From positions 1 through 37,809 of IMG/VR virus record IMGVR_UViG_2602041644_000008: a DNA stretch of 37,809 bases. One strand, written 5' to 3'. The notes below the pieces were generated by a model. That model ran no database searches. It saw only the letters and a list, made by a program, of their open reading frames with translations, and was not told where the DNA came from. Made by a program: the position numbers and the translations under genes. The first letter of the stretch is position 1, and every line of letters starts with the position of its first letter. This stretch comes from a virus (taxonomy: Duplodnaviria > Heunggongvirae > Uroviricota > Caudoviricetes). Shown one piece after another: positions 36,834 to 37,809 of this stretch.

Positions 36834-37036
36834 AACCAACACTCCTCTCATTGCTGCGAGGTGGAAAACACAGCATCCGAGATATGGCAAAGATTCTTGG
36901 TATCTCAAGATCGAAGGTTTCTTGGTTCATCGCTGAGCTTGAACGTCGCAAATGGGTAGAGGTAACCAGGAGCGCAATATATTTCCACGATGGAACCAGA
37001 TCCAACAAGCAGAACGAATACAAGGTTAAGTTATGA
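36830..37036 (+). CDS. Small winged-helix DNA-binding protein
   Basis: 68 aa. SIRDMAKILGISRSKVSWFIAELERRKWVEV looks like an HTH/wHTH. ATGA overlaps on both sides. Confidence 0.55.
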   Translation: MKPTLLSLLRGGKHSIRDMAKILGISRSKVSWFIAELERRKWVEVTRSAIYFHDGTRSNKQNEYKVKL

Positions 37037-37581
37037 ATACTGGCATCTATTTCGACATCAGCAATGAGGACTACCACGCCGGTGACGGCGTGAGTAAGTC
37101 GCAACTAGACATGGTTGCCAAGAATCCGGCGCTTCTTAAATGGGTTCAGGCAGCACCAGAAGACGAAGAGAAAAAGTCTGCACTGGATATGGGAACCGCA
37201 TTGCACTGTCTGCTTCTGGAGCCTGGAGAGTTCGACAAACGCTTCATTGTTTCACCGAAATTCGATCGTCGGACGAAACAAGGTAAAGCTGACGAAGAGG
37301 CATTTCTTCGTGATGTGGCGGATATGGGGATTACGGTACTTGATGCCGAGCAGTGGCGGAAACTGGAGCTGATGCGTGATAGCGCAATGGCTCACCCGGC
37401 GGCACGCTGGATGCTGGAAGCACCTGGTTACTGCGAAGCATCAATGTACTGGAACGATGAAGATACTGGTGAGTTGTGCCGCATTCGTCCAGACAAATGG
37501 CTGAACGAGCACAACGTGATCGTCGACGTGAAAAAGGTTGCAGATATGGACCGTTTTGCATGTCAACGCCACGATGTTTGA
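37033..37581 (+). pseudogene. RecE-like PD-(D/E)XK exonuclease gene, 3'-truncated by IS insertion
   Basis: The N-terminal FDISNEDYHAGDGVSKSQL and the nuclease core IRPDKW...VIVDVKK match the DUF3799/exodeoxyribonuclease VIII-like family as I recall it. The reading frame ends in a TGA (37579-81) that belongs to the terminal TG... of the IS element. Confidence 0.65.
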
Positions 37582-37809
37582 CCGTTATTTGCCATTTTCA
37601 TGCCCGCTAAGATACTTTCGTTACTGATGCTGTCCGCTTTTCACCATTTCATCATCACTGATTGGCGTTGTGTTTTTGGTCAGCACTCCAGCTTTACGTT
37701 TCTCTTTTAACCGGTAACTCTCTCCTTTGATATTCAGCGTGGTTGAGTGATGTAGCAACCGATCCAGTATCGCTGTTGCCAGCACGTGATCTCCGAACAT
37801 TTCTCCCCA
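37579..37809 (-). mobile_element. IS21-family insertion sequence, right end (element continues beyond the window)
   Basis: The minus strand ends ...AATAACGGTCA (terminal CA), about 40 nt after the istB stop. It interrupts the exonuclease gene. Confidence 0.7.
37621..37809 (-). CDS. istB: IstB-like transposition helper ATPase, C-terminal 62 codons (partial, runs off the window)
   Basis: Not in the ORF track because there is no start codon in the window. Minus-strand translation from 37809 gives [70 protein letters not shown]...GESYRL is the IstB C-terminal signature. Confidence 0.75.

Follow-up and report, generated by a model that had tools for sequence, protein, structure and literature searches.

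The DNA analysed here (the window) is a stretch of 37,809 nucleotides, the last 37,809 bases of contig AYNJ01000093.1 (263,057 bp; assembly GCA_000506505.1) of E. coli LAU-EC10. This clinical strain, an ESBL-producing stool isolate from Lebanon, was sequenced by MiSeq in read pairs of 250 bp, from which a5 produced a draft of 147 contigs (PMC3931373). The window begins in host DNA, with yfgH (1-516) and yfgI (532-1071, of which 532-1068 match yfgI at 99% identity), runs through a prophage and reaches at its far end a RecE-like exonuclease gene into which an IS21-family element (the IS) has been inserted. The features needed for the argument are listed below; L006 denotes the end of a second LAU-EC10 contig, described later.

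1164..1180, no strand assigned: att core AATCATTCCCACTCAAT on the yfgI side, a 17-bp exact repeat with L006 4512-4528
36317..36345, plus strand: promoter-like site TTGACA-17-AATTAT (10/12; consensus match only), likely start of the operon p39-p38-marR-like-exo-recT...
36379..37036, plus strand: three small operon genes (50 aa; 99-104 aa; 68-aa MarR/wHTH), upstream of the IS and unaffected
37033..37560, plus strand: 5' part of the RecE-like PD-(D/E)XK exonuclease gene, codons 1-176, matching the intact 273-codon exonuclease gene in E. coli E47 at every nucleotide (100%)
37557..37560, no strand assigned: TGCA, one copy of the 4-bp target-site duplication; the second is at L006 351-354, right after the IS left end
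37561..37581, plus strand: tail of the fusion ORF, six codons CQRHDV (177-182) and TGA, from the IS right terminal repeat (three-way alignment)
37561..37809, minus strand: right-hand 249 bp of the IS21-family element, antiparallel to the exonuclease gene and ending with the contig; 0 mismatches to the copy in E. coli NCTC86
37561..37571, minus strand: right terminal inverted repeat, TGTCAACGCCA from the tip inward, ...TGGCGTTGACA-3' on the IS strand
37621..37809, minus strand: 3' end of istB (AAA+ helper ATPase), 62 codons (37624..37809) and a TAA stop (37621-37623); PF01695 IstB_IS21 positions 199-238 of 238, E=4.7e-16; also NF038214 and NF006616
37631..37638, no strand assigned: subterminal octamer TGTCCGCT, read by eye, a candidate inner transposase-binding repeat (R2)

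The 182-aa ORF at 37033..37581 (plus strand) matches PF12684/DUF3799, the PD-(D/E)XK domain found in RecE, in a profile search (E=5.5e-13), but only over profile positions 1-134 of 233; whole-domain homology to RecE is thus absent from the window ORF, which is a disrupted rather than an intact member of the family. Intact homologues are 273 aa long, and the profile match of an intact relative covers PF12684 positions 1-220. The original prediction, that the gene is interrupted, would have been contradicted by full-length homologues ending naturally at this position; they extend past it.

The position of the interruption was fixed by a three-way alignment of the window with the intact exonuclease gene of E47 and the IS end of NCTC86. 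Up to and including ...TTTTGCA / ...GACCGTTTTGCA (37560) the window matches the E47 gene at every base, and from TGTCAACGCCACG / TGTCAACGCCACGATG (37561) onward it is identical to the NCTC86 IS end. The true boundary between gene and IS lies between 37560 and 37561, and the first IS letters are TGTCAACGCCA... An uninterrupted gene would read TTTTGCACGCCAC across the insertion site. Because the boundary lies here, the residues CQRHDV and the TGA that close the 182-aa ORF are derived from the IS. It had been proposed that the exonuclease frame stops in a TGA at 37579-81 and that the IS begins there; the stop codon is where it was placed, and the real junction is 21 nt further left.

Searches against complete E. 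coli genomes are in accord with this boundary. In a megablast with 37540-37809 as the query, the istB ends of copies labelled 'IS21-like element IS21 family' were matched in 3235 of the 5426 genomes, and the matches to these IS copies begin at ~37554-37559, before the TGA. A separate search with 36830-37581 returned intact 'PD-(D/E)XK nuclease-like' genes, those of E47 and DETEC-S566 being 100% identical to the window, with homology ending at 37560. The junction between exonuclease and IS seen in LAU-EC10 was absent from the complete genomes searched with this second query, and an exact look-up of the fusion protein (ETE19355.1, 182 aa) returned a single contig only, AYNJ01000093.1.

These data bear on a quite different explanation, namely that the 182-aa protein is a genuine shorter member of the exonuclease family. 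Such a protein would account for the retention of the H...D...DxK residues (see below) and for the GenBank annotation of ETE19355.1 as exodeoxyribonuclease VIII, but the explanation is refuted by the origin of the last six codons and the stop, which are IS sequence. In addition, all 14 of the other members listed in a 2312-member cluster at 90% identity are 273 aa long, the Pfam match extends no further than profile position 134 of 233, and the missing part of the gene is encoded 2.1 kb away. We accord it almost no weight.

To the right of the boundary the minus strand carries the end of istB. As had been noted from the letters of the sequence, the last 62 codons of this gene, with a translation ending ...HQ*, were missing from the ORF list because the ORF runs off the end of the window; only a 59-aa piece starting at an internal ATG (37621..37800) had been listed. 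Earlier reading of the IS tip was less accurate. A tip of about 40 nt ending in GGTCA had been described; the non-coding tip is 60 nt (37561-37620), the IS strand ends ...GGCGTTGACA, and GGTCA is the complement of 37579-37583, inside the IS.

For reference we used the complete copy in NCTC86 (locus L001, 3504-5634), which is 2131 bp long, encodes an IstA of 390 aa (NF033546, IS21-family transposase, 8e-85) and an IstB of 265 aa (NF038214, 3e-90), and is flanked by its own 4-bp duplication, ATGC. This copy lies between daaF and afaA (L001 3100-6700) in an Afa/Dr adhesin operon region, so that there, too, IS21 interrupts an accessory locus. The two IS stubs assembled in LAU-EC10, of 249 and 350 bp (599 of 2131), have 0 mismatches to it; a match of 249 bases with 0 mismatches to a complete 2131-bp element is not due to chance. 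The left terminal repeat, TGTCAGCGCCA, agrees with the right one, TGTCAACGCCA, at 10 of 11 positions (consensus TGTCA(G/A)CGCCA, from L001 and L006), and the tips read TG...CA and lie precisely where the match to the intact exonuclease gene breaks off. Reading by eye, we saw TGTCCGCT near both ends, 43-50 nt in from the left one and 71-78 nt in from the right one. Elements of the IS21 family encode IstA and IstB and possess terminal repeats composed of multiple sub-repeats with a terminal CA (PMC10122671). Both genes are represented at this locus, the IstB end in the window and the first 83 IstA codons on L006 (NF033546), and both are present in the reference copy.

Identical copies are labelled 'IS21-like element IS21 family' in RefSeq. 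Identical or near-identical ones are common on enterobacterial plasmids, with matches in 3779 PLSDB records, 647 of which contain most of the element. The istA/istB element IS21 was first described on plasmid R68.45, and a length of 2131 bp with an IstA of 390 aa and an IstB of 265 aa are what we take to be the figures of this prototype. When the primary description of IS21 was sought in the literature for length, repeats and duplication size, only family-level structural papers were found. Over the 599 bp that are assembled, the sequence is that of copies widespread in E. coli chromosomes and enterobacterial plasmids, and the element agrees with IS21 in length, in IstA and IstB sizes, in its TG...CA ends, in the 10/11 repeats and in the 4-bp duplication, with no detectable difference except the new insertion site. 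Judged by the RefSeq labels and by these figures, the element in LAU-EC10 would be prototype IS21. Its strain-specific insertion and the spread of identical copies suggest that it is mobile.

The contig stops 249 bp into the IS because the IS is repeated in the genome and the short-read assembly broke inside it. The original prediction had pointed beyond the IS, where the remainder of the gene and a target duplication of 4-8 bp should be sought, and both were found on AYNJ01000058, the duplication being TGCA. The search was an exact look-up of candidate remnants reading from an internal ATG (MYREGAMRV...) and built on the C-termini of related 273-aa proteins. Candidates with the E47 C-terminus, in three possible starts, gave no exact match; variants with other C-termini matched. 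The 84-aa remnant is ETE23854.1, 'hypothetical protein V415_07715 [E. coli LAU-EC10]', and it lies at the end of LAU-EC10 contig AYNJ01000058.1 (99,244 bp), locus L006.

L006 starts with 350 bp of the IS left end, finishing ...TATATCACTGGCGCTGACA; next come TGCA and CGCCACATCGAGGAATTCCGC..., with which the intact gene resumes exactly. The second junction thus reads IS left end ...CACTGGCGCTGACA, TGCA, CGCCACATCGAGG... IstA residues 1-83 on L006 are 100% identical to the reference IstA. The rest of the exonuclease comprises 97 codons (residues 177-273). TGCA is present once at this site in the intact gene and at both junctions in LAU-EC10, which marks a simple transposition that duplicated 4 bp of the target and cost the prophage no DNA. 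Beyond the IS left end, TGCA and the 97 exonuclease codons, L006 continues with recT, an AlpA-type gene, perC, an MT-A70 methylase gene, DUF1382, int, attL, guaA, guaB and xseA. The recT gene (645-1526; 293 aa, PF03837) overlaps the exonuclease stop (GTATGA), an arrangement also present in E47. The AlpA-family protein is 82 aa long (its E47 homologue matches PF05930 at 3e-5), and the integrase, of 416 aa, is encoded on the strand opposite to the exo-recT operon.

Taken together, the two junctions and the duplication support the original proposal of an IS21-family element in the exonuclease gene. The most probable course of events is as follows. One 2131-bp copy of IS21 transposed between codons 176 and 177 of the recE-like exonuclease gene, antiparallel to it, the target being a phiV10-like (Uetakevirus) prophage at the guaA 3' end of LAU-EC10. 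The insertion duplicated 4 bp (TGCA) and deleted nothing. We assign a probability of about 0.92 to a single IS21 transposition into the prophage recE-like gene with a 4-bp duplication. The insertion is specific to this strain and, with its identical IS copies and intact duplication, recent.

The location of the junction at the extreme end of a short-read contig, where misjoins are commonest, raises the question of an assembly artefact, in which IS reads from elsewhere were joined chimerically to the contig end and the exonuclease is intact in the cell. This is scarcely credible, since the sequence changes over precisely at the terminal TG of the IS and since the reciprocal junction, at the other IS tip, is present on an independent contig with the predicted TGCA duplicate. 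Furthermore, no uninterrupted gene from the LAU-EC10 assembly turned up; the 273-aa proteins that were found belong to other strains.

A more substantial uncertainty concerns the central 1532 bp of the IS, which are unassembled between AYNJ01000093 and AYNJ01000058, so that the middle lies outside both contigs. Only 599 of the 2131 IS bases are assembled beside the junctions, the IS must be multicopy in LAU-EC10 for the assembler to have stopped, and IS21 is known both to form tandem copies and to act on them (PMC10122671). The gene halves might therefore be separated by two IS21 copies, in tandem or as a composite with intervening DNA, or might have been parted later by recombination between IS copies. 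Both possibilities must be set against the identical 4-bp duplication at the two junctions and against the fact that the contig ends face each other in the E47 gene order, with neither flank missing anything. Moreover, the yfgH-yfgI and guaA-guaB genes carried by the two contigs also flank the E47 prophage, which argues against an inversion between IS copies. We consider these arrangements improbable, and a tandem or composite IS21 would in any case leave the same two junctions and not alter the conclusion for the gene. A single IS between the junctions is the most economical reading.

It was also of interest to determine what the exonuclease has lost. The intact 273-aa relative aligns with the RecE nuclease domain 3H4R over residues 12-268 (E=1.9e-77) and matches NCBIfam PRK09709 (exodeoxyribonuclease VIII) at positions 606-873. 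RecE of the Rac prophage (exodeoxyribonuclease VIII) is thus matched by the intact relative over its whole crystallised domain, with the equivalents of H652, D748, D759 and K761 conserved; whereas RecE has 866 aa, the phage gene encodes the nuclease domain alone, in 273 aa, and is split in LAU-EC10. In the 3H4R alignment, H58 of the phage protein stands opposite the histidine in the GTAFHC motif of RecE. With H58 taken as His-652 of RecE, an offset of 594, residues D154, D165 and K167 would correspond to RecE 748, 759 and 761. In RecE, D748, D759 and K761 are presumably the catalytic D, D and K. His-652 is an active-site residue of RecE (PMC11611040), and, as with RecE, the phage exonuclease gene is followed by a RecT gene, with overlapping stop and start (PMC11611040).

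The split falls after A176 (RecE 770), downstream of the D-DxK core. The 5' part (codons 1-176) accordingly keeps H58, D154, D165 and K167, that is, the catalytic H...D...(D/E)xK, and Q187 and Y191 (RYHVQDAMY, in which QDAMY is the QxxxY motif) are encoded beyond the IS with the rest of residues 177-273. The QxxxY motif is conserved in RecB-family nucleases. What was one reading frame is now two, an N-terminal fusion product of 182 aa and a detached remainder of 97 codons. With 97 of 273 residues separated, including QxxxY and the C-terminal third of the fold, the exonuclease is very likely inactivated. That exonuclease function is lost, as had been predicted, is therefore a strong inference from sequence, resting on the splitting off of these residues together with QDAMY.

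Apart from the IS and the duplicated bases, which add 2135 bp, the prophage measures ~40.55 kb; its two ends are intact. The twin of the att core (L006 4512-4528) overlaps the guaA stop codon and we therefore conclude that the phage integrates into the guaA 3' end and restores guaA. The exonuclease DNA is 97-99% identical to that of phiV10, O157 typing phages 9 and 10, TL-2011b, ZX5 and other Uetakevirus phages. A related prophage in E47 sits between guaA and yfgI, with the same gene order around the exonuclease. In phiV10 (Uetakevirus), whose exonuclease DNA is 97.7% identical to that of LAU-EC10, there is the same order of repressor, terminator, two small genes, recE/recT, AlpA-family gene, perC, methylase, DUF1382 and convergent int. 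It differs in being annotated with a single fused 586-aa recET ORF (L005 4486-6246) and in lacking the IS and, at this point, the marR-like gene. By contrast, E47 (L002 6204-7903) and LAU-EC10 (L006 394-1526) have a separate exo (273 aa; split by the IS in LAU-EC10) and recT (293 aa) with a 4-nt overlap. The recET ORF of phiV10 is either a real fusion by frameshift or a sequencing error. The 68-aa MarR/winged-helix gene (36830-37036) overlaps the exonuclease start and is present in LAU-EC10 and E47 and not at this position in phiV10.

Several other features of the prophage were recorded. A tRNA-Arg (anticodon TCT) is located at 25772-25848, between the portal and terminase genes, a position at which the E47 relative also carries one. 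Between a 771-aa putative tailspike (3621-5936) and the virion genes lies a block of mixed-strand ORFs (6000-9500), whose counterpart in E47 contains an acyltransferase and an ISKox3 insertion. The ORFs of this block had no confident Pfam match, and 8671-9183 gave a sub-threshold match to YafO toxin (E ~1e-3). The block may represent accessory ('moron') cargo.

An identical 84-aa ORF on four metagenome contigs of related prophages (L007, L008, L011 and L012) suggested that the exonuclease gene might be disrupted recurrently. These cases were rejected as artefacts or unverifiable. Alignment revealed runs of N (scaffold gaps or masking) in the exonuclease gene at ~4560-4660 of L007, ~4000-4100 of L008 and ~460-470 of L012, with N-run boundaries identical in two independent assemblies, and L011, a Logan contig, has a 1-bp deletion at ~910. 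Together, the N runs and the deletion generate spurious 84-aa ORFs that are identical to the real LAU-EC10 remnant.

We turn now to the consequences of the insertion for neighbouring genes. The site at 36317-36345 is the only good consensus promoter on this strand and follows a terminator-like hairpin (36246-36265) downstream of the repressor gene, at the place where phiV10 has an annotated terminator. Transcription from an early promoter near 36317 would cross 2.1 kb of untranslated, antisense IS. Both recT and the AlpA-type gene are encoded on the exonuclease strand, and in a simple consensus scan downstream of the insertion, no promoter-like site was found before either. When promoters and terminators were scanned for in the IS and both flanks, the counts did not exceed those in shuffled sequence; these scans therefore neither establish nor exclude internal promoters. 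It is plausible that polarity lowers the expression of recT, the AlpA-family candidate excisionase, perC, the MT-A70 methylase and DUF1382. The integrase gene is convergent, on the opposite strand, and therefore cannot be a polar target, contrary to the suggestion that integration genes are disrupted in this way.

The suggestion that the prophage is locked in must likewise be regarded as speculation. The prophage retains, undamaged, both 17-bp att cores, a 416-aa int and an 82-aa AlpA-family candidate excisionase, and int, attL, attR, the repressor and the replication, lysis and virion genes are structurally unaffected. With int encoded on the other strand and neither att core damaged, a locked-in state is not supported, and no structural feature stands in the way of excision. 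One may imagine that insertion upstream of the AlpA-family candidate excisionase uncoupled excision from induction, converting an inducible phiV10-like phage to an anchored prophage that is kept for its cargo (the tRNA-Arg and the accessory genes at 6-9.5 kb). We regard this scenario as doubtful. The idea that the IS enlarged the genome beyond its packaging limit was discarded as weak, since the prophage is ~42.7 kb and related phages range over 39.1-44.8 kb.

As a whole, these results describe a known IS in a known kind of prophage gene, which is an ordinary and already familiar situation. For the LAU-EC10 assembly, AYNJ01000093 and AYNJ01000058 are joinable across one IS21, and ETE19355.1 ('exodeoxyribonuclease VIII') and ETE23854.1 ('hypothetical protein') are the halves of one gene, to be annotated as a pseudogene. 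IS insertion in prophage genes is a routine route of prophage decay, and the case has little importance beyond LAU-EC10. Within this strain, tests of prophage inducibility should expect a RecE-minus and possibly a RecT- or Xis-deficient phenotype.
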